DNA of 60,819 nucleotides, the filler included, from Porpidia crustulata (lineage: Eukaryota): assembly GCA_964255105.1 (NCBI GenBank). It is 10 parts of 10 records of this genome, joined end to end, with 100 filler letters (N's around TTAATTAATTAA, not from the genome) between each part and the next. Parts side by side here need not be neighbours in the genome. Positions count along the whole stretch, not along the records: positions 48,787 to 54,753 come from CAXUWE010001662.1; 9 more parts are not named here. The stretch is one strand, 5' to 3'. A program made the position numbers and the translations under genes. The notes below the pieces were generated by a model. It was not told where the DNA came from. It saw only the letters and a program-made list of their open reading frames with translations, and made no database searches. How positions within the stretch are numbered: position 1 is the stretch's first letter; every line of letters begins with the position of its first letter. Below are positions 4,364 through 54,753 of the stretch, piece by piece.

Positions 4364-6011
4364 ATGGCGATTCCTGGTAGAGCTGTATATGTCGACGAAG
4401 ACGTTGGTAAAGACGAGACCTCCCACAATGGCACACAAGACCTCCCTTATCAAACGTTACTCTTCGCCCATATTCAACATCCCCCCTCAGATGGTACGCA
4501 GTATCATGTGCGCAAAACGGAAACCATAGCTGCTAGCGATGGTGGAGAATCCAAGGAAATTCGAGAGTGGAAACCAGCTGCAAAATCCGCGTTGAAAAAA
4601 GCTGCCAACCTGTATGATCAACATAAGAGAAAATTGGCCAAGAGCAATGAGATTGCCATTCGGGAAAAGCAAGAAACTGAAAAGCGCCAACAAGGGCTAG
4701 AAATGGCCAAAAAAATCAAGCTCTCCCAAGATTCAAGCTTACCAAAGGCGACTAAAATCATGCTCGGCGATAGGGACCCTCAAAAAATAAAGCTTCGGAG
4801 CGGGACGAGTTCGAAAGACGTAGATTACAGTGAGGGTAGAGGCACAAGAGTACGAGTCACGGGACGAGTCCATAGACTTCGCTCACAAAAGGATGTCATA
4901 TTCGTGACGCTCCAAGACGGCTACGGCTTCCTCCAATGCGTCCTTACCGGCGACCTCTGCAAGACCTACGATGCCATGACCCTTACCCTCGAAACCTCAA
5001 TGGAGATTTACGGTGAAATGTGGGAAGTCCCCCCCAAACAACACGCCCCCGACGACCGTGAACTCCACGTCGACTACTACGAGATCATCGGCAAAGCCGT
5101 CGGCGACAAAGAAGCCATTACCACGCGCGTCGCCCCTGACTCTGACCCCCAAACCCTCTACGACAACCGACACCTGGTCCTACGCGGCGAAAACTCCTCC
5201 TCGGTCATGAAAGTCCGCGCGGCCCTCCTCCGCGCCTTTCGCCGCACCTACGAAGAAATCACCCCGAGCTGCCTCGAAGTCACCCCTCCTTGCATGGTGC
5301 AAACCCAAGTCGAAGGCGGCTCCACCCTCTTCGCCTTCGACTACTACGGCGAAAAGGCCTTCCTCACCCAATCCTCCCAGCTCTACCTCGAAACCTGCCT
5401 GCCCAGCCTCGGCAACGTCTTCTGCGTCGCGCCCTCCTTCCGCGCCGAGAAATCCCTCACCCGCCGCCACCTGAGCGAATACACCCACATCGAAGCCGAG
5501 CTCGACTTCATCACCTTCGAGGACCTCCTCGTCCATCTCGAAGACGTCATGTGCCGCGTCATCGCCACCGCCCTCGCCGACCCCGCCACCCACAAACTCG
5601 TCCACGACCTCAATCCGGCCTTCCAGGTCCCCGCCCGCCCCTTCCTGCGGATGCGCTACGCCGACGCCATTGCCTGGCTGCGCGACCACGCGATCCTCAA
5701 CGAAGACGGCCAGCCCCACGCTTTCGGCGACGACATCGCCGAGGCCGCCGAGCGCAAGATGACCGACATTATCGACCGCCCCATCTTCCTCACCCACTTC
5801 CCCGTCGCGATCAAGGCCTTTTACATGAAGAAGGATCCCGCCGACCTCCGCGTCACCGAGAGCGTCGACTGCCTGATGCCCGGCGTCGGGGAGATTGTCG
5901 GCGGCAGCATGCGCATGGACGATTACGACGAGCTGATGGCGGCCTACAAGCGCGAAGGCATCGGCGCCGAGCCGTACTATTGGTATACGGATCAGAGAAA
6001 GTCTGTCGCCC
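4364..6011 (+). CDS. DED81: Cytosolic asparaginyl-tRNA synthetase (3' truncated at contig end)
   Basis: OB-fold RVRVTGRVHRLR, class IIb motifs QTQVEGGSTLF, LTQSSQLYLE, FRAEKSLTRRHLSEYTHIEAE and GEIVGGSMR. It ends at YWYTDQRK, before motif 3. Confidence 0.95.
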
Positions 6012-6111
6012 NNNNNNNNNNNNNNNNNNNNNNNNNNNNNNNNNNNNNNNNNNNNTTAATTAATTAANNNNNNNNNNNNNNNNNNNNNNNNNNNNNNNNN
6101 NNNNNNNNNNN
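6012..6111. other. Artificial contig-joining linker
   Basis: N44-TTAATTAATTAA-N44, which has stops in all six frames. Confidence 0.98.
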
Positions 6112-12118: not shown

Positions 12119-12218
12119 NNNNNNNNNNNNNNNNNNNNNNNNNNNNNNNNNNNNNNNNNNNNTTAATTAATTAANNNNNNNNNNNNNNNNNNNNNNNNNN
12201 NNNNNNNNNNNNNNNNNN
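12119..12218. other. Artificial contig-joining linker
   Basis: N44-TTAATTAATTAA-N44. Confidence 0.98.
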
Positions 12219-15200
12219 CTTTAAGATCTTCTCCTCTAGGGTACCCCGCGTGATCAAGCGGTACACGTTGACGACCTTCTTCTGCCCGATGCGATGTGCG
12301 CGATCCATGGCCTGCAGGTCCTTTTGCGGGTTCCAGTCGTGCTCGACGAAGATGACCGTGTCGGCACCTGTCAGGTTCAGGCCGAGCCCGCCGACGCTGG
12401 TGGTGAGGAGTAGGACGTCGTAGCTGGGATCAGTGTTGAATTGGTTGACAATGTTCTGGCGCTTGTTGGCCTCGACGCTACCGTCGAGGCGGAGGTACTG
12501 CACTCCGGGTAGGAGTTTACGCAGTACGTCGGTCTGGACTATGTCGAGCATTTCTTTCATTTGGCAGAAGATCAGGGCGCGGTGCTGGGAGACGTAATTG
12601 GTTTCGGGTGCGAGGTCACCGGAGCTGCTGGTAGTGTCGGAGCCGATGCCACAGTCGACAAGGAGGTCACGGAGGGCGGTAAGTTTGGGGGCGTGGGCGA
12701 TGTCTTTGAGGTTGGAGTGCGAGCGGGCGAGTTGGGATTGGATGGCATCGTATTGCTTATGGCCTTCTTTGACGACGAGGGAGGGAGAGTTGCAGAGTTT
12801 GCGCATGTATTGGAGGGCTTGGAAGATGTGTTGTTTGGCTTCTTTATCGTCGCTGCCAGCGCTTTCGGCAAGGGTTTTGCGCTCCTTCTTGGCGAAGTCG
12901 TCGAAAAGCTGCTTTTGAAGGTCACTGAGGTCGCAATAATAATTTTGGAGGATCTTAGGTGGAAGGTCGTCGAGAACTTCTTCTTTGAGCCGACGAAGTA
13001 GGAATGGGAGAACTTGTTTATGCAGAGCCTCAATGGCGAGGGCACCGGCTTCTTGTTCTTTAGAAGATGACTTACTGTAACGCGACGCAGCGATAGGTTT
13101 GGCGAACCGGTCAAGAAATACCTTTTCAGTGCCTAGGAAACCCGGCATTAAAAAGTCGAAGAGTGACCAAAGCTCCAGGACGTTGTTTTGTATGGGCGTG
13201 CCGGAAAGGATGAGGCGATGGTTGCTACTGATACGTTTAACGGCTATGGTAGTCTTAGCTCTAGGATTCTTGATGAGATGCCCTTCATCTAAAACACAAT
13301 AATTCCAGTTATGTGGCAGGAAAACATCAACATCATTCCTGCAGACATCGTACGATGTGATGACTACATCAGTCTTGCCTATTTGATCCCTTAATCGTAT
13401 CCTGTCTGACGCAGGCCCTACGTAAGCCAAGCAGGACAAAAATGGCGCATAAGTCTGAATCTCTTGCTGCCAATGACCCGAAAGCGTTGGCGGGCAGACT
13501 ATGAGTGAGGACAGACGCCGTGAATCGGAAGCCTGCGTTTTTGCAAATTCTTCAGCTCGAAGGTGATGGTCGCTCGCCATAATGCAGAGCGTCTGCAATG
13601 TTTTGCCAAGACCCATGTCATCGCAAAGAATACCATGGAGATGATAGCGATTGAGGAAGGCTAGCCAGTTGACACCTTCTTGTTGATACGTTCTGAGTTC
13701 GGCTTTAATGGTCACAGGCACCTCGAAAGGCTGCACTTTCTTGGGATCAAGCATTTGCGAGATGAATTGGCGCTCACGATCTCGGCCTTTTAACAGCTTG
13801 TCAGGTAGGCCGGGCGGATCAGGTATACCTACTTCCAGAGGGACGAGCTTGACAAGGGTCGCAAAGGTAGTGGTTGCTATCAATCGAACGTCGTTGTCCG
13901 AGTCGCTCATTCGGCCGAGTACGGGCACAATAAGGAATATGACATATGGTAAAATGCTTTCTTCCATGACATGAATGATGTGGTATACGAGTTCGATGAT
14001 TCCTTGGCGAGGATGTATTTCTGAGGAGCCGATGAAAGGGAGTATGTCCTCAACAAGCGTTGTCATGCCTTGGATCCTTAAAATACTACAGATTGTAGCA
14101 AAACACTTCGCTGCCGCATAGCGGAAAACGGACAGCGTGCTTCGTAAGGCTTTTGCTACCAGTGGCATCAGTTCAATAGCGAAAGGATGAAGATCATGAT
14201 GCATGCCAGGCAATAAAGCTCGCAATATGGATAGACCATCGACTACATCCTGGCCAAGTTCTATATTACTCTCATTGACCTCCATCGAGACGTCCTCCCC
14301 AAATACTTGATGGAGAGGGGATCCGATCTTGGTCCTTAGCACAGGCGCTTTGATGAGCAGATCTTTACCAAAAGTCTCAGTAATCTGGTCAAACGCCTCT
14401 TTCGCACCTCGTCTTGTAATCCGGGCGGCTCTCGCCTCCATTTCATACTTGAGCGCGTCAGGATGATCTCGACGATCCTCCTCCTTCCGAAGCGAGAGCA
14501 CGGAATCTTGGAGACTCGCATTGGGTCCAAACTCTGGCGTTTCAGAAGTATCAACACAATAAAACTTCATCAGATTCACAATAACTTTGTCGGCAGGCCC
14601 GCGGCGCTCGGAATTAGCGTAGTAGCTCATCAAGGAGGCTATCGAAGCAGCCGATCGTTTTTGCAACTCGAATTTCTCTTCGGTCTTGACGCTGTCCATT
14701 AGCCCTTTAATCACCAGGCTTGGTTTCTTTGGGACGTCGTTGAAAGCCACAATGGCACCAGATGCGGCTGCCCTAATACGTATATCTTTTTCAGCCTTAG
14801 CTTGCTTGGCATCTTCAATAGCCGTTACAGCAGTCGCCCGAGCGTCATTCAATATCTGTAATGACGTTATTCGCTGGGCCGGTGTCAACGACTTCTTCAA
14901 ACGCTCAAAATCTTGCCCGACTACGGTATCAGCATTGGCAATTGAAAAAGCAGAAGGACCTGCTCCCGTCTCGCCCTGGACTACAATAGCAAGGTTTGGG
15001 ATCTTTGCAGAGGAGACGTGGCCTTGATCCCTGAAAGCATTCAACAATGAGTGGCATTGCGCTCTTGCAATTCTCAGATATGGTAGGAGGTCATCATAGC
15101 TCTCAGGTCGGTCCTCCTCAAGCACATTTCGAAGCGGTTCACTAAAACGGCTGACTGTTTCAGCAGCGTTGGGCGAAGCACTAGCATACTCTTCTATGAT

Positions 15201-17877
15201 GATGGCAGTCGTCATTTGAGTTGTCGAGAACGGGGATCTTAGCCGAGAAACAAGATCCTCAAAAAAGGATTCCAATGCCGGATTCTGCTGCCAGAGGGCT
15301 AACGCTCTGCCAAATGCCTTTGCTGCAAATATTCTAGATCTTATCAGCGTTTCGGCACCTACAAGATCGATGTCGCCCTGTATCATATGTCCATCAACGT
15401 TATGGGATGAGGGTGATGGTTCTTCCTTTCTGTCTGAGCGCCTCCTTCGTTTGGGTGCTGGCTCACTGCTTTGATGCGGCGTTGGTCTGCTATTCGTAGG
15501 GTTCGGTAGAGCGAACATCTGCCCCGAAGGCTTCATCAAGAGGGACATGTCCATGGGAATTGAATATCGTGACGTCCCTATAGGATGCGTTGTTAGATCG
15601 AAAAGATCTGGAGCATGCGGCAGGAACTCAGAAGTGAATCGGTCGGCATCTTGATCAATCAGGGCATTCGCAAGAGAATACCATACTTCAAGAGATAGCT
15701 TGAGCACAGCTTCGTTTCGTTCCACCAGTAGATTCTGAAAAACAAGCCGCAATATCTTGCCGTTAACCCAACCCTTCGTGCCTCCCCCTCCGATTTGAAG
15801 AAACGTTTGTAACGCCCTGAGCACGGCTAACCGCACACTGGTAATCGTATGTCTGAGGAATGGATAGAGTCGCGGAACTAGGTGGGTAAAAGAATGCTCG
15901 GGATCTTTGGCCGCGTTCTGCTTCATAGCAGCGAGTACCTCTGGAAAGCTGCAGAGTTTGGCCAAGAGGTCCATGACAGACCCGGTACTAGCACTCAAGT
16001 CGTCCCGAAGATCTGATAGACAATCCCACACGATGTTCATAAGACCGTCAAGAGCTGCCGGACGAAGCACTACAAAATCTTTTGCTATAGGCGTCAGTGT
16101 GGCTGCGCTCACAGCACGGACGTCGTCGTCGAAATCTCCGAGTCCAGTCATCACTGCCTCAACCACGCCGTCCATCAACCCATTATCTTTGACAAGTAGA
16201 TCATTTCGAACGGCAACCAAGTACCGCAGACCGATCATCCCTCCATGGCAGACTTCCCATATCCGATGACCGATTTTTAGATCTCTTTGCATTACCATCC
16301 GGTAGAGCACCCGGTAGACCGAAGTCACCAAAGCAGGCATTAGGTGAACCATAAGCGCCCCAAGGGTTTGCCCAACAGTCTCTCGAATGGGTGCTACGAC
16401 ATTGTCCGATATGTAATCGCCGAAGCGATCAAGCATAAACACGCAGCAAAGTCGACAAGCCAGGTTGTCCAACCATCGGGCGTTGAGCGCATTGTTGAGA
16501 AGCTTGGTTTTACCGCGAACACGCCCGGCTCCGGCGCCGTGGACTCGAATGACTTCTCGCAGGCCCATGGCCGCGCCATGCCGGATTTCCCAATTTTGGT
16601 CAAACATGTCGACCATCAATACCTCGCACAACCGTTCAAAAGGCCACTCGAGCCCTTCTTCTTCAGCCTCGGTTTGTAAGACTGACTTCTCTGATAATAT
16701 CGATCCTTTAAAGTCGGAAACAATCTTCGCATCCTCATCAATGTCGGTTCGGTCCAGAGAGAAGACATCAGCATGAACGTCATTCTCGTATTCGTTCTTG
16801 ATTTCTGTTTTGATCCCGTAAGGCTCAGCGGTGGAAGGTGTCGTGGATGTGGCGCTGCTGGGTCTGCGAATCGACAGGTCGACCACACGGACTTTACTCG
16901 ACTGGCTTTTTGCATTCAACTTGTTCTTTCTTTTCAGCTGATTCAGTTGGCGTTTACTGAGTCCTGTCTCATCCGTGGGTGTCTGAGAGAACGAACCTCT
17001 GGGCGAAGCCGCTGTGTAGGGCGAAGGCGACTGTACATGTTGATGGCCAAATAAGGCGCTAGATGAAGTATCTACTCGAGGTAATCCACTTTTTGAGTTT
17101 GCCTTTCGCCGCAAGTCGGCGGTCACCAGGTCCTCCTCAAGGGTTAATCCTTCAATCTGTTCACCTAGAAGTCCCAACCTTGCATTTAGGCTCGATTTCT
17201 GAATTGCAAGCTTCTCCCCCGGTTCCAGCGCGGCGAGAGCATAGTCGTGCTCCTTACCAGCGCTACCGAGTAGCTTCTTACCATAAGTCAATATGGCTGA
17301 AATATCCAAGGTATCCAGCTGTAGCTGATCCTGGGCCAGGGGAACATCGGCCAGAGTCGGACTACCAGTTCCAGGGTCATGATTCTCCAGCGTCGCTTCA
17401 CTCGAGTCATCGCCAGAGACTACGCTGTTGGGCTCAAACAGACCGGCATTTTCGACCACGCCCCCAATTGCTTTGGCGGCAGCTGTGCGCGTGTCCCAGC
17501 TTTTGCACCTCAAGAACGGGAGCACTCGGGTCAGCAGATTAAACAGTTCATCGGGATGTTGTTTTTGAACATCGGCGAGTTGCTGGGCAGCAGTGTTCCG
17601 TATGAGCTGTGTACTGCCTGTTTCGAGTAATCTGTTTTGCGTACGTACCTAGTCAGACGTGATTCGTTGATTGGGACTACCTTAGGGTTTCACCTACGTG
17701 ACTAAGCGGTCGAGCCTAAAATGGACGACACGTGATGATTAGCAGTCGGCCACATAAATTACCCTTGTGGTACGTGCTAAGACCATCGATCCTTTCAACC
17801 AGGACCAGGGGATTAGGAACTGGAAATGAACAATGACAACAAAGATCATAGTAATTAACCACATACCTCGAGGTCAT
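12219..17877 (-). CDS. MOT1: TBP-associated Snf2-family ATPase Mot1/BTAF1 (3' truncated); micro-exons 17877-17867 and 17715-17698, then long exon from 17631
   Basis: Spliced start MTSR-LDRLVT-LLETGSTQLIRN, HEAT-repeat region (DRFGDYISDNVVAPIRET), and Snf2 motifs LCDDMGLGKT, LDEGH, SGTPIQNN, GGLGLNLTGAD and QAMDRAHRIGQ. Confidence 0.97.
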
Positions 17878-19324: not shown

Positions 19325-21446
19325 TTATAGTGCCTCCCCCGGCGCCAGCCGCCATGCCCGCAACGGCAGCGCCTGCAGCTTCATCGCCGCGGGTCGGATA
19401 TATACCCAGAACGTGACCACGCCAATGATCACGCACACGACGTTGGTAATGTAATAGCCGTCCCTCGATATGGTGCAGGTTCCTCCGCCCTCCGTGCAGC
19501 GGTGCTTTTCGGCCTCGGCGACACAGGAGAAGGCGGTGGTGATGAGAGATCCTTTCAGCTCTTTGGGAGGGTCGAGGGGAGGGGCGCAGGTGGCAACGGT
19601 GAAGGCATCAACGAGTTTGAGGATAAAGAAGCGGGGAAAGGTGCCGCCAAGGTTGGAGACGCTCGAGGATGATAGTTGTTAGTTAGGTAGGTTCAAGGGA
19701 GAATTGAAGACGTACGTTGCCAGGAGGGTCATGTAAGTGCCTCCGATGGCTGGGTCTGCGATTTTGGCGTGGAATGCGGAGATGGCAACGAACATTACGG
19801 TGTTGGTGAAGGTGGAGAAGATGTGTTCGGCGATCACTGTCAGGAGGTACCATGTCTGTACCCCGTCTTTCGGGAACAACATGACTACCCCTTGAGCAGC
19901 AACGGCTGCTAAGAGTCTACCAATGAAGGCCCAACACCAGACGTGGATAGGTGGATAGGCGGTGGACCAACGTCCAGCATAGTAACCCAGACCAATCTCA
20001 AAGGGAAAGTCGATAAGGACGGTAAGGGCCATGTCTTCTTGGCTGAAACCCTTATCAATAAGCTTGAGGTTTGTGACCCCATCATTGGCTTGGAATCCAA
20101 TTTTAGCGATGAGATGGATTATTATAATACTTTGAATGTTTTTGAGTCTTAAAACACCAAGCATGCTTTTATAAACCTCCGCGATCCCATCTCGTTCCTT
20201 CGTCTTATCTTCCCTCTTCAGAATGGCGAGGCCAAGTGTTACCACAAGATATGCCCAGCCCCAAAACGTAAGGTAGCCACCAAGCGTCATTACTCCAACG
20301 TCACTAGGGAAGGAGCGGAACCATCTATTGGCGAAGTGAGGCGAGTTGAATGCTAAGAAGACTGTATATGACAAGAAATGGCCAGCAGTTAGGCCAACCG
20401 TTTGGGCAGTGGAAGCGTAAGATAGATTTTGAGGGGAAAGGAGTGTAAGAGCCCAGCCTAGATATCACCGTCAGTTCCCAGAACAACGTGATCTTCGAGG
20501 GGGGTCCCCTACCGTCTACAGCAATGTCCTGCGTAGCGCAGAGAAACACCAGGAAAAACCACCACCGGGTGAAATTCCAGACTCCAGCGCCATCGTTCGC
20601 CCCCGCCGCAATCATCATGTCTTTGATCCTCCCTCCGAGGTATATCATCCCTAATCCTGAGCAAATCTGTATTGGCATAATCCAACTTTTTCTCCTTCCC
20701 AGCGCCGGGCTCCATACCGCATCGACGATTGGACTCCATAACAGCTTCAACGAGTAGGGATATGACGCCAAGGAGAATACCCCTATCTGGCCGTAAGAAA
20801 GATGTGATTTTAGCAAGAAGGGCACGGATCCACCCGCTAGCCCCATAGGAATGCCCTGAAGAAAGTATAGTAGTACGAGAAGTAGAAAGTTCCGCCGATC
20901 TTGCCTGGGCAAATCGAAGAGGCTTGCGTTTGGATTTGGAGTCATTGGGGTCGGTGGTGGCTCATCATCGAGGCTGAAGTTTTCTCGGCCCATAAGGTGA
21001 GCTGTCTGTGATGCGGCTGTAGGATATTCCAGGGACGGGTCTTTCCGCCGCATCTCGAGGTGAGATCCCATGTCGCCGTTCGCGTGGCCGTTTTGGCCTC
21101 CAGAAGCCGTCGAAATTGGCCTATCCGGCACTTTGATTCTCGAATTTGGCGTCCTGCGTCCCATTTGCGGATCGTCTAGCAGATCTTCGGATGTAGAGGT
21201 AGGACTGACAGCTCGTTTTTCAGGATCTACTGGCAGATCGTGTATGTTCACTGGCAACGCTTTTTTGTTATGGTCTCCCTCGCTGTTTGCCCAGTGCCCA
21301 GTAGCGTCTACCTCTTTATCTATACTGCTGAATGGTCTCAATTCCAACTGACTGGAGGTACGATGCAACGGTAGACCAGCCTCAACTTGCGAGGGCACTT
21401 GGTGTACTCTATTATAAGGAAAGGACTCGCCGAATGAGGTAGGCAT
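19325..21446 (-). CDS. Acetyl-CoA transporter (Acatn/SLC33A1-like MFS); 3 exons (21446-20513, 20457-19716, 19661-19325)
   Basis: Motifs LLYFLQGIPMGL, YPYSLKLLWSPIVDA, ATQDIAVDGWALT and DPAIGGTYMTLLATVSNLGGTFPR. The start codon is uncertain. Confidence 0.92.
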
Positions 21447-23660: not shown

Positions 23661-24324
23661 AAGCCTCAAAATAGCACTAGCGAGGTAACTTTTGCGGCAC
23701 CCAGAGAACGAAGGTGATGTCGGGGCAGGGGAAGGCGTCAAGAGAGGCACTGGTGAGGGAGGTTCAGTGGAGCGGCAAAGCAGAGGTGTGGCTTATGAGC
23801 GCTAGAGATGAAAAATTTCGCAGTGAAAGCATAGTGTCAGGAATAAGGAAATCCTATTTCCATGCCCATCTCACCCATACCTCTTACATCCAAAATCCCA
23901 TTCCACAACTCCTAAACCCTATACATCTCAAATCTCCCACCCTCACAATCCCGTCTCTTTCCCCCAAACCAATTCTCTCCCGCTACTTCCATCACTCCGA
24001 CCGCGTCCCCCCGTTACGTCCCTCTCAGTTCCCTAGTCCGACGTGTGTGATTTATGCTTGCACTCGAAAGGAGCTTCTTGGTGCTGGATTGATGCTGTAT
24101 ACTCTGGAGCCTGCATCTGCCGTTGGCTTACCGCAATACCAAGGGGCAGTGGTACGGGTGGGGACATAATGGAACTTGTGAAACAGGTGCCGTGAAACTT
24201 TTTGTACCCCGCGTCCTCTCACTGGTTTATCACGACGATTTTGACGGGCGATTTGATACGTGCCTTATTTGTCGTTCTTTTAGGTATGAGAGGGTGTGAT
24301 GGTTGGAGAGGTTGAGATTGGGAT

Positions 24325-31234: not shown

Positions 31235-32617
31235 ATGGCAGAACCAAAGTCTCCCAAGGTCCCGTTCGGCCACTCCATGAGAAAGGCCCATTTCAATTTC
31301 GCTCCATCCTATACACCTCTCAACCATGGTGCATTCGGTACGTACCCTAATGCCGTGCAGAATAGGCTTCACCATTTCCAGAAACTTGCGGAGGCAAGGC
31401 CAGATACTTTCATTCGATGGGACATACCCATAGCCCTCGACAAATCTCGAGCTGCGCTGGCCTCGTTCCTGGAGGTTCCAGCCTCGGAGGTTGTACTGGT
31501 ACCAAATGCTACTACCGGGGTCAATACGGTTTTGCGAACTTTAACATACGAAAAGGGAGATGTCATCCTTTATTTTTCGACATTGTACGGAGCCTGCGAG
31601 AAAACGGTCTCGTATATCTGCGAAACCACGGAAGCCGAAAGCCTGACGATCGAGGTGTGCTATCCATGTAGAGACGATGAAGTTGTAAAAAATTTCACAT
31701 CGGCTGTAAGAGCTGTGAATGCGCAGACTGGAAAAAGGGCCCGAGTGGCCATCTATGATAGTGTAACGTCACTGCCTGGAGTCCGCGTACCATGGGAGAG
31801 ATTGTGTGGTATATGTCGAGAAGAAGGTGTGCTAAGCTTGGTTGATGGAGCTCATGGTATTGGCCATACCAAGTTGAACTTGACAAAAGCGAGCCCAGAC
31901 TTCTTTGTCAGTAACTGTCACAAGTAGGTGGTGTCTAATTAGCTCTTCGATTGATATGATCGCTTATTCCCTATTGAAAGATGGCTCTATGTACCTCGAG
32001 GCTGCGCAATCTTTCACGTACCGGAGAGGAATCATCACCTGATCAGGACTTCACTACCGACATCTCATGGGTTCGTGCCAAGTCCTGAGAAGGCACCCGT
32101 TTTCAACCCAATGCCACCTAGTACTAGAAGTCGATTCGTCGAATTATTCCACTTTGTTGCCACTATCGATATGAGTCCATACCTTTGCATCGAAGAAGCA
32201 TTAAACTTTAGACGAGAGATATGCGGAGGAGAAGATACCATTCTGAGGTATTGCGAACACCTAGCACTCGAAGGAGGGAAAAGAGCTGCAGAGCTCTTGG
32301 GAACAGAAACGATGGAAGAGACTATGATAGGAAAATGTTGCTTTGCAAACGTACGATTACCATTGGCAGTAGGAGATGGCTCTGGAGAGATCAAGAAGCC
32401 CAATGCTTCCATCTTCCTGAACTGGTTTGCGCATAGATTAGCGGCAGAATTTGATACGTTCATGGCCCCATATATGCATGGAGGCTGCTTCTGGGTCCGT
32501 ATCTCAGGTCAGATCTATCTGGAGGTGCAGGACATCGAATGGGGAGCGAGAATACTGAAGGAGCTCTGTATAAGAGCTCGAATGGGGGAGTATCTGCAGA
32601 TGAAGGCGCAATTGTGA
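31235..32617 (+). CDS. egt2: PLP-dependent class V aminotransferase/C-S lyase, hercynylcysteine sulfoxide lyase (Egt2)-like; intron 31924-31980
   Basis: LNHGAFGTYP, VPNATTGVNTVL, VDGAHGIG, spliced PLP-lysine motif SNCHKWLYVPRG, IRTSLPTSHG and WVRISGQIYL. Confidence 0.85.
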
Positions 32618-33475: not shown

Positions 33476-36364
33476 ATGCCAGCGAGAGCTTCAGACATCG
33501 CCAAACTGAAAACACATACCTCTTTCTTAGCTGGCTGGAAGACTTCATCTGATTCTAGCCACGACAACACAACAGTTCCTACTCCCTCCGAGACTCCTCC
33601 CCAACTTCCAAATTCTAGGACCACAAGCCTTCCAGACCTAGAAAATCTCAGCATTACCAACATGGATGAAAGCAAAGCCACTGGCTCCAGCTTGAGGGAA
33701 GATGTACCACCAAATTCAGCCGAGGGCTCTGGAGCACAAGTCGAGACTAAGACCCAAGATAGTGGGGATGCTAAAGTCAAAAAGGGCCCCTGCCGGAAAC
33801 ATTTGAAAGGGCACAAGAAGGCGAACAAGCGATCGAAGGTCAAACTAGAGGAGTCTAGCTCCAGTGAAAGCTCGTCATCGAGCAGCTCCAAATCCAGCTC
33901 CACTGAATCCGAAGAATCCACAGAAGGCGAATCTTCAGACGAAGAGGAGGATACAGATGCTGCGAAGAAACGAAAGAGTAAGGCCAAGAGGGCGAAAAAG
34001 CTGAAGGAATTAAAAGAGAAGAAAAAAGCAAAGTCACGGAAGCACAAGGAGCTGAGCGACGAGGAGGAGGTGTCCGAGTCAAGCAATGAGTCTAGTTCCG
34101 AGGAGGAAGACAAACGCCGAAAGTTAAAATCAAAGAAGAAGAAAAAGCTAAGGAAACACCGAAAAGAGGTCGAATCTTCAGACAGTGAAGAAGAGGATGA
34201 GGATGAATCTGAGTCTAGAGCTCGTGTCCATCTGAAGGCTCTAAAGCTTCGAGGCTATCGACGCGTCAATAAAGGAGGTTTAGCTTCGTTGAATGATCGA
34301 GGGCTCAAAAAGAATTCGAAATCGAAGGGTAAAAAAAAGAAGAGGTTAGTTCGATTGTCTTACGTGCATGCTTCTAAAAACCCGTCGGCGCGCCATCGCT
34401 GACGTTCCAGCTATAGGGGTTCTAAAGTAGACTTTGTTCGGGTCGATCAACTCTGGGACAGCTCAATTCATAATTACAAGCTGACAGAAACCGCCGAAGA
34501 TGCTGACGCTAACGAATATGATCAATATGTTTTTACTGTCCGAAGGAAGTTTGATTGGGAAAACAAGTATACAGAGACGGTTGTCGACATCAAAAGCAAA
34601 CCGCTGAAGGAAGCCCTGACCCACGTCATGGGTGCCGTTAAAGGAGTGTCGTTTGCGGAAGAGACCCCAATCGTAGACCCGAATATGCTTTTCCTGTATC
34701 TGGAGGAGCTACGCACCTACACAAAGGAGCTCAAGTCGCTCAGCAAATCCGAGAAGAAGAAGAAAGCCAAGAAAGTGGCTCAAATCAAGGCTGGTCATGT
34801 CAAAGTGCTTGTCAAATACCTGGACAAGGACTACGCCGAAACGAAGAAAACCCTTTACCCGCTGCTAGAATCCAATACGATCACCTTTGATCTGCTATGG
34901 GCGTTGTTCAAGAGCAATGAGATTGCTTACTGTCCGACGTATTCAAATCCTGACGAACCCCGGGCATTCAAGATCGAGTATGCTACGAAGGAGTCTTCGT
35001 TCATGAAAGGTACATGGTACAGTATTGAAGGCCGGTATCTCGAATACGATGGCAAGACTTTCGGTATGGGAACGATGGAAGTTGAAGTCGAGCAATTCAA
35101 AGGTCCACGGAAGATTACCAGCCTCGCATGCTACCCTCTGAAATATCACAAAGAATCTGCAGCCCTTAGACAGCAACTGATCGAGCGAGGCAAGAAGTTT
35201 GTGGCTTTGCAAGGCATGAATTATCGCTTTCATAAAGGCATGGCATTTTACAAGAAAAAGCGTCAGATCATTAAAGTCAACATTAATGGCCGTGTCATGG
35301 TCGATCCTGCGATTCACCGCCGCATTAATCCCAATTATCCTATCTCTACCGTCAAACCGAAAGACCCCGATATCCTCGAAGAAGAGGAGGGCAGCGGTGA
35401 TGAAAGCTGCGGCTGCTGTGAAAGCTCCGAAGACGATGGTGGCCAGAAACCAACAGAGCAGCTCGAAGACGCTGACAAGCCTAGGACAAAAATGAAGTTG
35501 GTCGTCGACGCCGACGAACGTCCCCACATCGTCGAAGTGGAAATGGACGAACATGGCAACGAGGTCCAAAAAGAAGATATTGATCAGCTCCCCGGCCAAG
35601 ATGGTGCTGCAGAACGCCAATTCGACGATGAGGAACTCCTCATTGCTAGCCCCGTTGTCCTTGGCTTCGCCTTTAGCGAGAAGCTCTGGCTTGAATTCAC
35701 CGTCAGCGGCATAAATGACATTGATTGGAACGAAGGCGCCTTCACCTCCCTCGTGCTTCCCGAAAACCAAAAATCCATCGTCAAAGCCCTGGTGGAATCT
35801 CACACCTTTCAACCAAGCCGCAACATCGACGACGTCATCCAAGGAAAAGGCCGAGGACTCGTAGCCGTCTTGCACGGTCCCCCCGGCACAGGCAAAACGC
35901 TGACCGCAGAGGGTATCGCCGAGCTGCTCAAATGTCCGCTTTACATGGTCAGCGCTGGCGAACTCGGCACCAACCCCCGCGAGCTCGAAGCCGAATTGAA
36001 CAAGATCCTCGACATCGCGCACTCCTGGGGCGCGGTCCTCCTCCTCGACGAAGCGGACGTCTTCCTCGAAAAACGTACGATCCAGGACATCCATCGCAAC
36101 GCCCTTGTGAGCATCTTCCTGCGCCTACTGGAGTATTTCCAGGGCATCCTCTTCCTCACCACCAACCGCGTCGAGACCTTTGACGACGCCTTCCAGTCGC
36201 GCATCCACGTCGCGCTGCGCTACGGCGAACTGACACTCAAGGCGAAACGCAGCGTGTGGAAGATGTTCCTGGACAAGGTCAAGGCCAAGGACGGGCTCGA
36301 GACGATAGACTTCAAAGAAACGGATTACGACAAGCTAGCCAGGCACAACTTGAACGGGCGCCAG
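33476..36364 (+). CDS. Fungal AAA+ ATPase (DUF7025-associated type) with long Ser/Glu/Lys-rich N-terminus; intron from 34345; 3' truncated
   Basis: ITFDLLWALF, INGRVMVD, Walker A HGPPGTGKTLTAE, Walker B LLLDEADVFL, LTTNRV.TFD.AF.SRIH, then LNGRQ and a GTACGT donor. The start could be 33662. Confidence 0.92.
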
Positions 36365-36515
36365 GTACGTACCCTCTCTTTCCCCAACTCATTAACCCCA
36401 TTTACCTCCTCCCAAGCTCGAGTCCCCACCCCCCCCCAAAAAAAAAAAAAAAAAAAACCACAAAAAAAAACACCACCCCCCAAACAAAAAAAAAACCAAC
36501 CCCCCCCCCCACCCC

Positions 36516-47200: not shown

Positions 47201-48686
47201 ATGGCAGCGGTGTCTACAATCCCAGATGAGCTGGGCCAACCACCAGCATTGACTGCTCTAGCGCTTGCCGAAAAGTCCCAAGAAGCAGCAACAACGGAAC
47301 AAATCATAACTCCCTTTGACGTATCCGGGGGTGTGGACGAGCACGGCAAAGCAAAAGCTATAGACTATGACAAACTTATAGATACCTTTGGGTCTCAAAG
47401 AATTGATAAAGCGCTCCTCGAACGTTTCGAAAAAGTTACTAGCCACAAACCTCACCGCTTGATGCGCCGAGGGATGGTGTTCAGCCATCGTGATTTGAAC
47501 ATTATATTGGACAATTACGAAAAGGGGATACCATTTTTCTTATATACGGGAAGAGGTCCTAGTAGCGATAGTATGCATGTAGGGCATTCGATACCGTTTG
47601 AGTTTACCAAGTAAGTTATTCTCCAAATTCTCGAGATCTTGTCCTTTGAAGATGTCTTCGAAATTCGTGTATATCTTTGATAATTCTATCTTATCTAAGA
47701 TTTTCCTTGTGGTTGATTATTGCAAACTGAAGACTTCCCTCTGATTCTCAATTCTCCTTGCCTACTAATCTACGGACCCTCAAAATGCTCGTACTTTTAT
47801 GATAAACTCTGCTCCATGACATACTAAACGAACTAGATATCTACAAGACGTCTTCGATGTCCCTCTAGTCATAATGCTAACAGACGACGAAAAATTCTTC
47901 CACACCCCAAAACTCACCCTAAAAGAGGCCCATCGCTTCGCCATGCAAAACGCTCTCGACATCATTGCCATCGGCTTCGATGTGAAGAAGACTTTCATCT
48001 TCGCCGACACTCAATTTGTCGACAGCGGTTTTGCCGCGGCCTTTAATTCCAATGTCCGAGAAATGGGCAAGCGCACCACAAACAACCAGATCAAAGGCAC
48101 ATTTGGCTTCAACGACAGCAACAACATCGCCGAATTTGCCTTTCCCGCCATGCAATCCGCCACCGCCTTCGCCACCAGCTTCCCCTTTATCTTCGGCTCA
48201 GACCCGAAGAAAGTCGCCAAGATCCCCTGTCTGATCCCCTGTGCGATCGATCAAGACCCCTATTTCCGCCAATGCCGCGACAACGCCCCGCGCATCGGAT
48301 ACATCAAACCCGCCATCATCCACACCGTCTTCCTGCCCTCCCTCAAAGGCTCCGAGAGCAAAATGTCCGCCAGCGACGCTGACTCCAGCATCTTCCTCAG
48401 CGACACCGACAACCAGATCAAGAAGAAAATCGGCAAGGCCTGCTCCGGCGGCCAGGACACTATCGAGCGCCACCGCGAGCTCGGCGGCCGCACCGCCGTC
48501 GACGTCCCCTTCCAGTACCTGACCTTCTTCCTCGAGGATGACGACGAGCTCGAGCGGCTCCGGGCCGCGTACGAGTCGGGCGAGCTGGCGAGCGGGGAGA
48601 TGAAGGCGGCGTGCGTGCGGGAGCTGCAGGCGTACGTGCGCGCATTCCGGGAGAGGCGGAAGGGCGCGAGCGAGGAGGTGAGGGAG
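47201..48686 (+). CDS. WRS1: Cytosolic tryptophanyl-tRNA synthetase (3' truncated); intron 47611-47836
   Basis: FSHRD, YTGRGPSSDSMHVGH (HIGH-like), LTDDEKF, PCAIDQDPYFR and KMSAS. Confidence 0.95.
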
Positions 48687-48786
48687 NNNNNNNNNNNNNN
48701 NNNNNNNNNNNNNNNNNNNNNNNNNNNNNNTTAATTAATTAANNNNNNNNNNNNNNNNNNNNNNNNNNNNNNNNNNNNNNNNNNNN
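48687..48786. other. Artificial contig-joining linker
   Basis: N44-TTAATTAATTAA-N44. Confidence 0.98.
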
Positions 48787-49962
48787 CTTGTTCGGTGCTG
48801 GAGGGGCGGGTGGAGATGGCTGCGGGAGTGATGATGGTGGAGGTGGAAGAGATTGAGGGATAGGCAAAGTGGCGGATTGGCCATATCGCTTCTTAGGCGG
48901 CGGTCCAGCGGCAGGGAGGATACTAACCGAGCGACCACGCTTGATCGAAACAGGTGGTACAGGCGGCGGTGACGAGGGGACAAAAGGAAGGACCGATGGA
49001 CCCGCAGAAGCGGTAAGATGGATTTTGTGGGCCAGTTTGAGTCGCTTCGACCGCTCACCAGCGATCCCGATCAACGAGGCAGCCGGTGGTGCTACCACCA
49101 GGGCAGCAGCGGCCGAACTCGTCAATGCCTCCTGGACATCTGGAACGGACGCCACCGACTCCGATTCCTCGCGCGTTCACTTCCTTGACACGGGACCAGC
49201 CTGCGTCAATCGCTTAGGCGGAGGGAAAGGAGGTGCCGCTGTCGACTTCAACTTCCTCGACACGGAACCAGTCCGTGCCGATCGCTTGGCCGGCGGCGAC
49301 GGTGAGGTATTTTTAGGGGGTTCTCCCACGCCGAACTTCTTCGGCGCTGTCCTCATACGTTGGCCACGACCTCCACCGGTCGGAACATCGACTATGTCAA
49401 TTGCTAGCCCCTTTGGAGGAGCTGTGATGCCACCGTGGATGGTGACGGCTTGACGTTGTGGCCGAACCGGTGAAGTACGCGGTCTGGTAGCACGAGGATT
49501 GGCGGCGTGACGCTTCGGAGCAGCTTCACGGACAGGATGATCTGGGCTGTAGCCACCTTTCGGTGCGGTTCTCTCCTTCCACACATCGAACTTGCTTCTC
49601 CCATGATTTTTGCTCCAATTGCCGAAATCTTCATCGCCACGGAGGGCATACGGATTCGACTTCTTGGTAAAATTCGGGTCCTTGCGACGAAGATGAGCTT
49701 CTAGGTGCAAATACTCCTCTTGGTAAGCGCTCAACGCCTCCTGGCTGTTGGTTGATTTTCTCAGGAGCGCCATCATGGTGCTCTGAGTCGGCCTCGCCAA
49801 AGAGGAAGTGAACGTCGATGCAGGAGTGAGGGCTCTATAGCCATTATGATCAAGGAGCGCATCGTCGTCGTAAGGAGGAGGGAGTTCTACTGCTTCTTCC
49901 GCGACAGAAAGGTCGTCAAACTGCGATCTAGTCAGCACGAAGGCAGAATTGGAAGATTTCAA
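48787..49962 (-). pseudogene. Pro/basic-rich hypothetical reading frame with one in-frame TGA at 49177-49179
   Basis: ORFs 49177..49962 and 48739..49155 are the same frame, separated only by the stop in SRK*TREESES. Recurrent PP.KR motifs occur on both sides. Confidence 0.5.
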
Positions 49963-52895
49963 AGGAGGTTACATACAGGGAAGGGATTTTTCCGGAGCGG
50001 TATGGTATGCGCAGCCGCTGATGGCATATATAAGTCGGCAAATTCGCTCGGAAGGTGCAAAGGGATTGAAAGCTCAGCAGCAAAACGGGTTACAGCTGAT
50101 CGTGAAGACATTCCCTATCTTACTGGAAAACTTGAGGTATGAGTGTATTTCTGATGATACTGAGATCTTTCTGAACACAAGAAATTGCTTAGCGCTAAAA
50201 TTTTCACGATGCTTTGGAATGGGTGGGTGGTTTTTTGAACGTATGTGAAATTTTGGTGATGGTGCGTATGTATGGGGTTTACTTGAGAAGGAAAAAAATC
50301 AAAGGGAGAAAAGGTGTTCTTAAGTAGTGCCAGATTCATGCTAATGATCATGAATAGCTCAGACATTTGTTCGGACAATAGGGTCACATAGTGCTGGATT
50401 TGTACTATTTACCGCTTTGGTCATTCCACGTCGTGAATCTCAATAGAACCCCGATTTATCACAACACTTTGAACTAGTCTCCACTGATGGACAATAGCAC
50501 TATGAACAAAGGCTTGTTTCATCTTACGTCTGTAGACTGTAGCCTCTGAGATCTGAATATCGGTCTATCGTAAAATGCATCTATTAGGCTCATAGGAGAA
50601 CTTCACAAGGTTAGCCAAATATTGCTAAAGGTTGGAGGAACTGTAGAGATCAGTATGAGCTACGGTATGGAATACTACATTTGAAAGTAGATATAACATC
50701 ATGTAGAGTCTCACATATGGTCAAGTCAATCATTACTCTTCGCCCTGTCGAACCCCAATTTACACCTTATTTAATGCTTTACAAAGCTCTTTGTGCATAG
50801 TCTACTCAGTGAACTATGTACACCGTGACCAAAGTCCCTAAGAGACTTTCATTCTGTAGTTCGATCAGTATACCATCCAGTCCACAACGAGGTTTCCATA
50901 CGTGCTTCATCCAGTACCTCGCATGGATCATCTAATGCAGTCCATTCAGTGCTGTATATGCGCCAACTCTGATTCTCACGCATAGTGCAATACTTGCTTC
51001 GTCGATCCTTCGAATCGGCTTTGTTTATTCTCCATGCGAAGCTTCAGCTGAACCCAGAAATGATTATCCTAATTGTTCATATAGACTTTAGATTGGAGAA
51101 TTTGGCGTATATTAGCCAGAAATCTTCGCATCAAATTCGATCCGCCACGTAAAGCTTCGTAAGCGCCTTATTCGATACTCCTCCTTTGACCTGTCCAACA
51201 TCTATTTGAAGTCCCAAAGGTCTTGGGCTCATGCTTGATATTGTCCCGTCGGATATCATACGGGGTTTCCACCCAATCCTAGATCTAATGCTCCATTGAG
51301 ATCGCCTGATTTTCCAAACTAGGACGCCCAGATTAGTCTATCCTATGATCTATTGGAATTTTCGGAATAGATAAACCGGTATTTCAAATGTCCTTCATCC
51401 GGTCTTGATGTCACGTCCCAGGCTCGCCGAAGTTATGCTCGGATCTATTACTCTCTATTATGACATAAATTTCATACAGTACAATAACCGTCGTCATATA
51501 GATCCTTTGGGGGTATATCGAGTATTCGTGTGTATTCTCGACTTGAGTTCTGATCTGGCGTTATAGTTGCTTACCGGTGTCTTCACCGAACTTCCTATGT
51601 ACAGTTTGGTTTTCTCTTCCAATACTCTAGATGCTCATGCAATTTACTAGAGATTTGCTGCCTGGAATTCAATTTATGCTTTGCACAGATCCTCTGATGT
51701 GCCTGCTTATGGGTTGTGACCAGCTTCTGATCTATACTCCATGCAGAGCGTCCGAGTCGCTCTCATCGTTTCAGCTCATAAGCTATATTTATTTTAACCT
51801 CAGAAGGTTGGCCGTCGGTGCGCAATACTGTAGGATCCTTTAAGAAATTCCTTACTTGATATTTTGTCCAGTACTGATCTGAGCTTTGGAGGTAATGGCT
51901 GATGTATTTCAACCAGTGCTACCAACATAAGCCGTCCTATGCCGCACAGAAGATTCTCGAAGTACGCTATTCGTCTTCCTGGGTGAGTCTGATTCAATGC
52001 GCAGTTGGTAGATCAGATCGACGGAGCTATTTCTTTCGTATTACCTCATTGAGAATTTCATATAAATCTAGCTTGATATGTTGTTCATCGACTGATGCCG
52101 AATCTACAAGTGATTCCACTTAGTGCTTCGCCCAGATTTCATATATTACGATGTCTGAAACTTAGGACATGCTTTGATCAGCCCAAGGGGATAATATTCG
52201 ATCTTCGTATGACGGACTGAATGTCCTCTCAAAAAATCTGGTTTCTTGATTATTTTACTTATTGTTTCACGGCTTAAAGATACGATTCAAAGACATCAAA
52301 GCTGGCCATCAAGAGCTCCCCAGATTTCCGGAAAGGGTGAAGAGCCAGATCATGGTTGAAGCCCCTCCCGCACAGCGACAAGCCATATTCGGCAGTTGAT
52401 TGCTACGAAGCTCCAGGCGGTGAATCTAGGACTTAGCAGATCCGCCTTTCAGTGTTTCCATCTGCATTTTATCAGGTCAATCTTATGCTCCACAAATTCC
52501 TGAAACTACCTTATGTAGAGTGCCACCAGGTTCATCATTCTGGAAAAAAGGTACCATTCAGTGCTGGTCCATGGTGACAGGCTAAAATTATAGACTTGAG
52601 AATCATTAAGAGGAGATGTTTATCTTTTGGTAGGTAGTTCCGTGATCCTCTCATTCAATGAGCGATGACTGTGTATACCTAGGTTGTCTGTGGATATCTT
52701 TTGGCAACCACATGCTGTGCTGAACATACTTCCGGCATTAAGTTATTATCATAATGTTTTATCAGGCAGAGCGATAGGCCATAGGGCTGGAAAATCGATG
52801 TTATGTAAATAGGCGCTATCCTTAGTTCGGACGCATGTTGACTCAAAGACTGGGGATCAACCGCTGCTTTAACTCAACAGCTCACTCTGCGCAAC

Positions 52896-54453
52896 ATGTC
52901 AGCTGAAAAGAAAAGACCGACTGATGAAGATCTTCTGGCTCAGCTTGGAGCTTTAGGTGATGATAATGGCATAAATGACAAAGCTCCACAAACAGCTCCA
53001 CAGCAATCAGAAGCAGACATACTCGCGGAGCTTGGTATTCCGGAACGGCCAAAACCTGCTAGCAGACCACATACACCACGGTTACAATCAAGTTCGACCA
53101 CTCCAGCTCCAAGAGCTTCTCCCAAGCGTACCGGATTTTCTACATCTGCTTCGAACGATGGGACCCGAACTAGCGAAGAGAAGGCGCCTCTCAGGAAATC
53201 AGCCGAGAGCACGCGCTCTTTCCTTAATATTACCACGCCAGCAACGGAGACAGACATTGAAGTTGATCCGGAGAAGAAACAACATGTATCCGGGCCAGCT
53301 AAAGAGCAAAATAGTGGGGGTGGTTGGTGGGGTGGGATACTTGCAACTGCAAGCGCAGCTGTAAAACAGGCAGAAGCTCTAGCAAAAGAAATCCAGCAGA
53401 ATGAAGAAGCTCAGCGCTGGGCCGAGCAAGTAAAGGGAAACGTTGGCGCTCTACGAGGATATGGTGAGCGAATTTCAATTGTGTATCTCTCACAGTGCTA
53501 ACGATTCTAAAGGGGGAGAACTTCGTTCCCGTGCCCTCCCAACCTTTACTAACATTCTCCACACCCTTGCCCCTCCCATCTCTTCCCATGAACGTCTTCA
53601 AATCCACATTACCCACGACATTGTCGGCTACCCATCCCTCGATCCCCTTATCTATGCCACCTTCTCCCGCGTCATGGCCCAAGTTGAAGGCGGCGACCTA
53701 ATGGTCATCCAACGCGGTCAAGAATCTTCTCCCCGCCGCGACTCTAACGCAGGCTACAGTGGCTCCAACATCAGCGGCTGGAGCGACGGTCCTTGGTGGA
53801 GGCAGTCAGCGGAAACAAGAACTTTGGGAGCAGTAAAGGGTCTGGTCGAAGGTACCAAACTCTGCAAAGTCAGCGCCGAGTCGTACGCCAACGATTACTT
53901 TGCCTCATCCGGCGGCCTCGAAGAAGCAGCTAAGCAAGCTACCGAGGACCTAAGCGAAAGTAACCCCGTTCGCAGCAGCGACATATTCCTCTCCATCCAA
54001 GCCATTGCACATCCTCAGCCTTCAGACCTCTTTGGCGGTGCCGCACAAGACGCTAACAACAAATCCGAAGGTGTCATTGACCCTGAAGATCCGCCCGAAG
54101 ATCTCCTTGTCTTTGCAATCTACCTCCACGACCCCATCCACGGCATCACCTTCAACACCGTCACCCAAACTCTGCCAAATAAATGGGTCGAATGGCTCGA
54201 TGCTTCCCCCACCGCCGACTCCTCGGCATCCAGTCTCCCCGACGAAATCGCCGAGATCGTGAATACCGGGGGCGTGGACCCGAGGGAGTGGGTGGCGGAG
54301 TGGGTAGAGGAATTGTTATCGCTCGGGGTGGGTGTGGTAGCGCAGAGGTACGTGGGGAGGAGGATGGGTGTAGGTCAAGGGGGCCTAGGAAGAGGCAAGA
54401 TGAGGCAGGCGGCATTGGAGTCCGGGGGAGGAGAGGCCGCGAGAGCGGTTTGA
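52896..54453 (+). CDS. MTC1: Maintenance of telomere capping protein 1 (DUF5427); intron 53464-53512
   Basis: GGGWWGGI..TASAAVKQAE, LAPPISSHERLQIHITHD..GYPSLDPLIY.TFSRVM.QVEGG and DPREWVAEWVEE.LSL.VG.VAQRYV.RRMG. Confidence 0.9.
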
Positions 54454-54753
54454 TGTCGTATTCTATTCCCATAGCGGTATTGTCTTAGTCAGGGCGTTGG
54501 TTGTCGAGGGGTGTCAGTATGATATCCTTGTCTGCGCGGGCGTATCTGGAAACTGGACTTCTACGTAGCAGAGCAGTAGCAATACCAACGCTGTTTCTCC
54601 CCATCGATTGATAGCTACTCCGAACCATCACTCTCGCACACCCACAATCAGATTTAAACTAATACCCTCATTTCCACTCACCACCCAGTCCCGCAAAAAT
54701 CTCCCCCCCAACCTCACCACTTCCTCCCTATCCAAATCCCATCTCCACCCACC

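Follow-up and report, generated by a model that had tools for sequence, protein, structure and literature searches.

Fungal genes are C-biased along the gene body and G-biased at the 3′ end, as described by McLean & Tirosh 2011 (BMC Genomics, PMC3315797) in a data set that holds many Pezizomycotina (Aspergillus, Neurospora, Fusarium, Botrytis, and others). The bias affects four-fold degenerate sites, extends into the 3′ untranslated region (UTR), follows the direction of transcription and is strongest at the stop codon, and G-coded amino acids such as Trp are enriched at C-termini. Two candidate causes were put forward, one of them an adaptive avoidance of C at the 3′ end, and simple C-to-T deamination was argued against (PMC3315797). 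This pattern is compared here with a sharp change from C-rich to G-rich sequence inside the MTC1 gene of Porpidia crustulata, a lichen-forming Lecanoromycete. The gene lies in a window of 60,819 nt (the whole stretch of DNA that was analysed, taken from assembly GCA_964255105.1), and an initial inspection of the sequence, referred to below as the original prediction, had ascribed the change to a local strand-asymmetric mutation or repair process at fixed points such as replication origins, recombination or break hotspots, or R-loop sites.

Several other described systems bear on this comparison. In human genes, the available part of Ginno et al. 2013 (Genome Res, PMC3787257) connects GC skew at gene ends and R-loops with transcription termination and with closely spaced genes; according to the same portion, the skew may start before the poly(A) signal and is enriched where the next gene is close. 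For eukaryotes in general, the accessible sections of Zahdeh & Carmel 2019 (PLoS One, PMC6892556) report a preference for A-ending codons and a deficit of G-ending ones over the last 15–30 codons. GRINS, as characterised in the excerpted text of their description (PMC8256042), are duplicated regions of >500 bp and >80% identity, in which the mean absolute GC and TA skews exceed 0.15 and are strongest at third codon positions. For lichen fungi, no paper on gene-end skew turned up, which does not prove that none exists, and the Lecanoromycetes codon-usage literature that was listed consists mostly of mitochondrial-genome studies, with none on the nuclear codons of lichen fungi.

The MTC1 flip is a single-gene example of the fungal gene-end reversal published in 2011. 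The interpretation, given a probability of about 0.78, is that the switch marks where the C-biased body of the MTC1 transcription unit meets its G-biased 3′ end. Two layers add up at this boundary, namely an invariant G-rich peptide and a reversal at silent sites. In the silent layer, the body favours C-ending codons and avoids G, while G is preferred and C avoided in the last 66 codons and over ~100 nt of 3′ UTR. What is added to the known pattern is the reversal at the same MTC1 codon in 43 of 51 other lineages despite saturated silent sites.

The Skew Switch and Its Two Layers

In 120-nt windows, GC skew rises from −0.46 (54060–54179) to +0.63 (54260–54379), the surrounding ranges being −0.3 to −0.7 over 53460–54250 and +0.3 to +0.64 over 54220–54540. 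When scored with 200-nt arms, the switch is maximal at 54253, where the left arm is at −0.40, the right arm at +0.58 and delta at 0.98; none of the 55,928 scorable positions of the window has a larger C-to-G switch, which bears out the sharp switch that had been claimed inside an MTC1 exon. The C-ending codons quoted in the original prediction are located at 54126–54152, and the G-ending run starts from ~54255. The skew is still +0.2 to +0.4 over 54454–54560, and a return G-to-C switch follows at 54552 (delta −1.10), which leaves a G-rich zone of ~300 nt.

The locus sits in the fragment 48787–54753 (CAXUWE010001662.1) and is organised as follows.

52896–53463, plus strand: MTC1 exon 1, the poorly conserved N-terminal part (PF10310 profile positions 3–178)
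53464–53512, plus strand: MTC1 intron of 49 nt (GTGAGC ... CTAAC ... AG)
53513–54453, plus strand: MTC1 exon 2, with TGA at 54451–54453
53513–54254, plus strand: exon-2 body, silent sites strongly C-biased and G-poor
54255–54453, plus strand: MTC1 tail, the last 66 codons and TGA, silent sites G-biased and C-poor
54454–54560, plus strand: proximal 3′ flank, presumed 3′ UTR, with G > C and T > A, in which the G-biased zone continues
54568–54753, plus strand: very C-rich block (43% C) that reaches the fragment end

The gene belongs to family DUF5427 (PF10310), as judged by a profile match of exon 2 (E 4e-130); the nearest named protein matches come from lichen-forming Lecanoromycetes at ~81% identity, and other relatives reach up to 91%. 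The intron is based on a frame shift between the open reading frames (ORFs) 52842–53501 and 53434–54453, and the spliced coding sequence reads without a stop. The onset of the C-biased domain is at ~53430–53470, with a G-to-C switch at 53471. The stretch of ~2.6 kb that lies 5′ of MTC1 (50000–52800) is AT-richer (GC 0.41–0.43) and has no ORF of at least 120 codons. The window itself is composed of ten fragments of ~6 kb, connected by nine joints of the form N44-TTAATTAATTAA-N44 (e.g., 6012–6111 and 12119–12218); a skew change across any of these nine joints (e.g., 48687–48786) is a joining artefact.

At four-fold sites, the exon-2 body has G6 C75 A19 T32, versus G18 C7 A8 T4 in the last 66 codons. 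The G-ending share of Glu, Lys, and Gln codons is 19% in the body versus 82% in the tail, and the Gly codon GGG is used in 0 of 18 cases in the body versus 5 of 14 in the tail. Arg is encoded by eight CGN and two AGR codons in the body, while all seven Arg codons of the tail are AGR. Third positions of the last 20 MTC1 codons are G11 C3. The four-fold TA skew changes from +0.25 in the body to −0.33 in the tail, and most orthologues change in the opposite direction.

A large share of the jump belongs to the protein. The last 66 residues are near-invariant across 28 aligned Pezizomycotina orthologues and are rich in Gly, Val, Trp, Arg, Glu, and Ala (GGVDPREWVAEWVEE..GVGVVAQRYV.RRMGVG.GG.GRGK..ESGGGEAARA). 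Synonymous codons were permuted within exon 2 so that neither protein nor codon pool changed (n = 2000). The shuffled switch was 0.60 ± 0.06 (maximum 0.81) versus 0.95 observed, and the third-position contrast was 0.36 ± 0.14 versus 1.30 observed; none of the 2000 shuffles reached the observed value of either measure. Since the shuffles retain 0.60 of 0.95, ~60% of the jump is forced by the G-rich peptide through codon positions 1 and 2, and the remainder is a true silent-site reversal. In a further control, codon usage was taken from 20 other Pfam-supported ORF parts of the window and conditioned on codon family and next base. Under this control, G minus C in the tail was +11, versus an expectation of −7.3 ± 4.4, a difference of ~4 standard deviations (SD), and a fraction of 5e-05 of 20,000 draws reached +11. 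MTC1 is unusually sharp because the invariant G-rich peptide coincides with the gene-end silent-site reversal. The expectations that the flip would persist at four-fold sites and would exceed codon-shuffled controls, both raised by the original prediction, were thus confirmed.

These controls also bear on the simplest alternative, in which there is nothing beyond a conserved G-rich peptide with chance codon choice, or in which the two sides were brought together by an assembly chimera. The peptide alone does give a switch of 0.60, but the shuffles fall short in 2000 of 2000 cases, the conditioned expectation is missed by ~4 SD, and the reversal recurs in orthologues. As for a chimera, a contig break at 54286 in Logan might point to one, but the tail is in frame with a conserved C-terminus and the long contigs of relatives share the same arrangement, so that the chimera that the original prediction had named as a possible source of error was rejected. 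Altogether, this alternative has a next to negligible chance of being correct. In the Logan contigs of the sole matching run, one contig ends at 54286 and the sequence restarts at 54486, with 54287–54485 uncovered; this gap proves nothing either way and may be explained by low read depth (5 to 10).

The Boundary in Orthologues

A metagenome scan yielded 80 loci, which were clustered at 97% nucleotide identity into 52 lineages, the window included. In 43 of the 51 other lineages, the tail exceeds the body in four-fold skew; the means are −0.31 for the body and +0.12 for the tail (difference +0.43). When the orthologues are pooled, C goes down and G goes up in all eight four-fold families. Y-ending two-fold codons change from 62% C in the body to 34% in the tail, and R-ending ones from 52% to 67% G. 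The CGN share of Arg codons drops from 82% to 39%, and Arg, Leu, and Ser move to C-free codon boxes in the tail (CGN to AGR and CTN to TTR). The preference of the tail in other lineages is for G and T. The shift is alike in 11 close and 40 distant lineages and under every next-base context. Avoidance of CpG was rejected as its source, given that the shift is present in all four next-base contexts and that window genes display little CpG effect.

Third positions of the tail vary freely across lineages. When the window is compared with its nearest relatives, identity at four-fold sites is 0.40 in the body (expected 0.36) and 0.44 in the tail (expected 0.33), i.e., silent sites are saturated. The bias must therefore be renewed in each lineage as a matter of composition, and is not inherited site by site. 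Conservation of the switch point in related species, which the original prediction had proposed as a check, is found in this sense, and a boundary that is kept in 43 of 51 lineages despite saturation, and that carries on into the UTR, argues for a continuously renewed force anchored to the transcription unit. Beyond the stop codon, GC skew is +0.22 in the first 50 nt (positive in 77% of 48 lineages) and +0.13 in the next 50 nt (positive in 68% of 47 lineages), after which the sequence is C-rich. In these orthologues, T over A accompanies G over C for ~100 nt past the stop.

Codon trends of this kind might be expected from selection on translation, where a conserved cluster of non-optimal codons over the last 66 codons would slow ribosomes ahead of termination, for example to aid folding or membrane association of the tail, which is hydrophobic and rich in Gly and Val. 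The tail is indeed rich in the least used codons (GGG, AGG, GCG, and GTG), C-ending codons are depleted in the tail of most lineages, and in the biased genes C-ending codons dominate while G-ending ones are avoided even for Glu, Lys, and Gln. However, the bias runs ~100 nt beyond the stop into untranslated sequence, and synonymous first positions shift too (CGN to AGR, CTN to TTR). GAG, AAG, and CAG are usually preferred codons in Pezizomycotina. In the 40 distant lineages, the G-ending share of Glu, Lys, and Gln codons is 69% in the tail versus 54%, and the C-ending share of two-fold codons is 35% versus 61%; these opposite trends indicate a nucleotide shift rather than a uniform change in codon optimality. 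Exon 1, with the look of unselected sequence, has mostly A and T at silent sites and similar amounts of G and C (four-fold sites G17 C14 A35 T37), and is not G-rich. Selection on translation is thus considered improbable. Relaxed selection was rejected as well: exon 1 has the look expected under weak selection, while the tail is 68% G+C at its four-fold sites.

The orthologues also bear on the presence of a discrete element over the tail, such as a hairpin, a G-quadruplex, an antisense or alternative-frame ORF, or a GRINS-type repeat. The tail contains ten G runs of at least three, with a G4Hunter score of ~1.0, but in eight of eight lineages the placement of G at third positions gives no extra G runs relative to shuffles. 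G4Hunter is below the shuffles in L014, L045, L057, and L077, where 97% to 100% of shuffles reach the observed score. An RNA hairpin might pair the C-rich arm with the G-rich one, or the tail with the C-rich block 3′ of it, but the fold energies (z +0.43 and +1.30) do not improve on those of dinucleotide shuffles. The window does have long open frames of the antisense and +1 types, but of the 52 lineages only 30, 6, and 27 keep the respective antisense frames open across the tail, and 8 and 3 the alternative plus-strand frames; the antisense ORF that shares wobble positions in the window lacks a usable ATG. No repeat family or inverted pair touches 53500–54750, and the MTC1 tail is unique in the window. 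With third positions free and silent identity near saturation, an element of any of these types is highly improbable.

Gene Ends and Replication Origins

Skew jumps associated with replication origins are C-rich on the left and G-rich on the right. A bidirectional origin, or a recombination or break hotspot, fixed at ~54255 would set opposite mutational skews on its two sides, and the MTC1 switch matches this polarity; no other switch of its kind in the window is as sharp. Yet the G-rich side measures only ~300 nt and reverts at 54552. The silent-site amplitudes of 0.6 to 1.0 are also far larger than replication skews. Moreover, the skew tracks the sense strand whichever genomic strand a gene lies on, 43 of 51 lineages have the reversal at the same MTC1 codon, with or without a convergent neighbour detected by tblastn, and G-to-C switches in the window equal C-to-G ones (four of each, at |delta| of at least 0.7). 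A fixed origin or hotspot is accordingly a very remote prospect.

The origin and hotspot part of the original prediction was not supported by this comparison, given the following of the sense strand, the flip-back ~100 nt past the stop, the equal polarities, and the ~60% share of the peptide. Sense-strand following, anchoring at the stop, and the return flip therefore assign the switches to gene 3′ ends, not to origins or hotspots. The more general claim of a local strand-asymmetric process at fixed points holds in that a silent-site force exists and is anchored, as evident from the shuffles, the four-fold sites, and the orthologues, but the fixed points are the 3′ ends of transcription units. 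Likewise, the proposed recurrence of the C-to-G polarity is found at gene ends but not window-wide. R-loops, the remaining alternative of the original prediction, may be involved.

Three of the four C-to-G switches lie ~170–200 nt 5′ of stops in the gene sense (MTC1, ALG5-like, and Acatn), and the fourth, at 24043, closes an intergenic C-rich tract. Overall, flips occur 60–200 nt before stop codons, with a flip-back ~100 nt after the stop. The gene ends concerned, other than that of MTC1, are the following.

19328–19387, minus strand: last 20 codons of the Acatn acetyl-CoA transporter gene, third positions G17 C0 after C-rich codons
58590–58757, plus strand: 3′ part of an ALG5-like glycosyltransferase gene, from C-rich to G/T/A-ending codons, with a candidate stop
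32555–32614, plus strand: last 20 codons of an ORF after an aminotransferase exon, third positions G12 C1, with a candidate stop
48570–48686, plus strand: class-Ib (Trp/Tyr) tRNA-synthetase gene, codons 251–275 with G18 C6 (four-fold G11 C2)

Acatn ends in its true C-terminus (PF13000 profile 450–545 of 546), and its switch is at 19494 as read on the plus strand. In the ALG5-like gene the switch is at 58590 and the last 20 codons have G9 C1. The tRNA-synthetase gene flips at codon 251, after ~225 codons in which C far outnumbers G, and its fragment ends 5′ of the stop.

Beyond MTC1, 12 other candidate terminal exons of the window, that of Acatn among them, were pooled. Third positions of their last 20 codons are G80 A67 T53 C40, and the G:C ratio upstream is ~1:1. 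At four-fold sites, the last 25 codons have G40 C31 versus G270 C426 elsewhere (Fisher odds ratio 2.0, p = 0.005). In the metaprofile of the 12 gene ends, the all-position skew starts from −0.05, climbs to +0.24 at the stop codon, and is +0.20 over the 60 nt that follow. A post-hoc criterion of G-dominance selects 4 of 12 terminal windows versus 9 of 262 body windows. Among the ORFs of at least 300 codons at all loci (n = 29), tail minus body is +0.15 (p = 0.09), a value diluted by internal exons.

In gene bodies, silent sites have more C than G on the sense strand, in genes of either genomic strand. Silent-site GC skew is correlated with the G share of Glu, Lys, and Gln codons (rho +0.43, 47 windows), and the biased genes are marked by avoidance of G, not by preference for C alone. 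In the most C-biased genes (4280–6010, 34403–36514, and 53513–54254), Glu, Lys, and Gln prefer A over G, with 38% G in AsnRS. The 1810-codon ORF of a Mot1-like SNF2 ATPase (12219–17648, minus strand) has a silent skew of +0.57 at codons 621–680 and of −1.0 at codons 1561–1620, in the helicase domain. Large intragenic skew swings are therefore not unique to MTC1. The stretch 23680–23843 is G-rich (40% G) and adjoins a promoter-type C-rich tract at 23849–24043 (skew −0.73), with a G-to-C switch of delta −1.09 between them; taken together, 23680–24043 resembles a bidirectional promoter at which two transcription units diverge, each with a C-rich leader.

The Convergent DUF2462 Gene and the End of MTC1

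Many Pezizomycotina have a small convergent gene of family DUF2462 (PF09495) some hundreds of nt 3′ of MTC1, and in at least 18 lineages its last exon matches 185–509 nt past the MTC1 stop (e.g., L004 4353–4810, minus strand; L015 4357–4695). The fragment in the window stops short of this gene. In relatives, the 3′ end of the DUF2462 gene occupies the position of the C-rich block of the window, and the DUF2462 sense strand is G-rich. Its C-terminus, which is rich in Gly, Lys, and Glu, is written almost only in G-ending codons (GGG, AAG, and GAG), and the purine tract continues past the stop. A dependence of the MTC1 reversal on this neighbour was rejected: the tail skew is ~+0.12 in 18 lineages with the gene versus +0.13 in 15 without a tblastn hit, although tblastn may miss small genes such as DUF2462.

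Within the MTC1 tail, the Gln-Arg-Tyr-Val codons at 54346–54353 spell a consensus 5′ splice site, AG/GTACGT, and a similar motif, AG/GTATGT, is present in the relative with 91% identity (L004 ~3828–3836). The public gene model of one relative (P0006, 431 aa) continues beyond the MTC1 stop. The G at the third position of Arg that the motif needs is present in only 11 of 51 lineages. Judging from the motif, an alternative splice at the GT of the tail is possible.

Possible Causes of the Reversal

If the switch is a gene-end boundary, the force behind it would be coupled to the direction and phase of transcription, and not to replication. A strand-asymmetric regime of mutation or repair might change where RNA polymerase II goes from elongation to termination. 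It might be reinforced by R-loop-prone, G-rich RNA, since protein constraint keeps the non-template strand G-rich here. Such a transcription-phase regime, with or without reinforcement by R-loops, is the most likely cause of the boundary, with a chance that is put somewhat below one half. An adaptive cause, either avoidance of C at the 3′ end or a terminal GC skew that aids termination before a convergent neighbour, is possible but rather doubtful. Asymmetric mutation or repair is tentatively favoured over adaptive C-avoidance.

Several observations weigh against the gene-end boundary or against the simplest forms of its proposed cause. At the orthologue level, eight of the 51 lineages have no reversal, and the pooled profile is a 5′-to-3′ gradient, from ~−0.5 to +0.2/+0.3, with no step. 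The Wilcoxon test of the tail–body contrast (p = 4e-8) is optimistic, since the lineages are phylogenetically related. Among the 12 pooled gene ends of the window, seven to eight have little or no terminal effect, most of these ORFs end in candidate stops, and a few genes carry much of the pooled signal (without Acatn, the four-fold counts of the last 25 codons are G28 C30). MTC1 itself departs from the published pattern, in which C-bias is strongest at the promoter, 5′ UTR, and gene start: it has no C-bias at its 5′ end, the skew at 52500–52900 being zero or positive, and its flip is a step of ~10 codons, far stronger than the gradual average ramps that were published. With regard to cause, C-to-T deamination on an exposed sense strand predicts T, but the tails are T-poor (G18 T4 in MTC1, G12 T0 in Acatn). 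A stretch in the middle of the gene that is also G-rich (residues 83–113) retains C-biased silent sites, and a role of G-rich positions 1 and 2 in driving G at position 3 was rejected in the control genes, where r was −0.01 in 220 windows and 2550 sites gave no trend. It follows that G-rich RNA is not sufficient by itself. Within the MTC1 body, too, G-richness and silent skew are uncorrelated (r = 0.11). The combination of G-dominated, T-poor tails with no effect of a mid-gene G-rich stretch makes simple deamination a poor fit.

It is tempting to speculate that the step 60–200 nt before the stop is a discrete, sequence-specified point at which RNA polymerase II goes from elongation to termination, although this is unlikely. 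A pausing zone that is prone to R-loops and seeded by G-rich codons would leave a heritable, strand-specific mutational footprint. If such points exist, the sequence of a compact fungal genome would by itself reveal where termination is entered, and G-rich C-terminal peptides like that of MTC1 would partly be products of the process, as McLean & Tirosh suggested for amino-acid usage. In more practical terms, a flip from C-rich to G-rich on a strand is an annotation cue that signals a coding region near its end. MTC1 and its convergent DUF2462 neighbour also provide a concrete locus for separating the mutational from the adaptive explanation.

Comparison with Known Systems

The MTC1 switch resembles those at replication origins in its C-to-G polarity only; it differs from them in scale and amplitude, in depending on gene orientation, and in flipping back after ~300 nt. 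With GRINS, as far as the excerpted description of them goes, it shares an intense skew at third positions of functional genes and the enrichment of Gly, Val, and Trp in stretches of positive skew. The GC skew of MTC1 lies within the GRINS definition, and its four-fold TA skew goes from +0.25 to −0.33 between body and tail in the window but shifts the opposite way in most orthologues. However, the MTC1 tail extends over ~300 nt, is unique in the window, and is anchored at a gene end, unlike GRINS as defined in that text.

The bias described in the accessible sections of Zahdeh & Carmel likewise consists of a shift in codon usage over the last tens of codons, with a drop in C-ending codons. In the present case G-ending codons are over-represented, over 20–66 codons, and the preference for A is not found. 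This opposite trend of G-ending codons therefore distinguishes the fungal pattern from the general 3′-end codon bias, to the extent that the latter is set out in those sections.

As in the available part of Ginno et al., a positive skew co-oriented with transcription is found at the MTC1 end, and a close neighbour follows (DUF2462 in relatives). The human skews presented there are on a kb scale, mostly non-coding, and accompanied by R-loops detected by DRIP-seq, while that of MTC1 covers ~300 nt and consists mostly of coding silent sites. Unlike in that portion of the human work, the tail skew of MTC1 orthologues is the same with or without a tblastn-detected neighbour.

The closest counterpart is the pattern of McLean & Tirosh. 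Their species list does not include the Lecanoromycetes, the class of the lichen-forming host of MTC1, and their genome averages and gradual ramps differ from the step of ~10 codons seen in this single gene, with its near-complete reversal from NNC to NNG. The presence of the pattern in many genes, following the sense strand, is matched here on a small sample (the 12 candidate exons, and Acatn on the minus strand). The C-biased body and G-biased end, the effect at four-fold sites, and the extension into the 3′ UTR are all present in MTC1.

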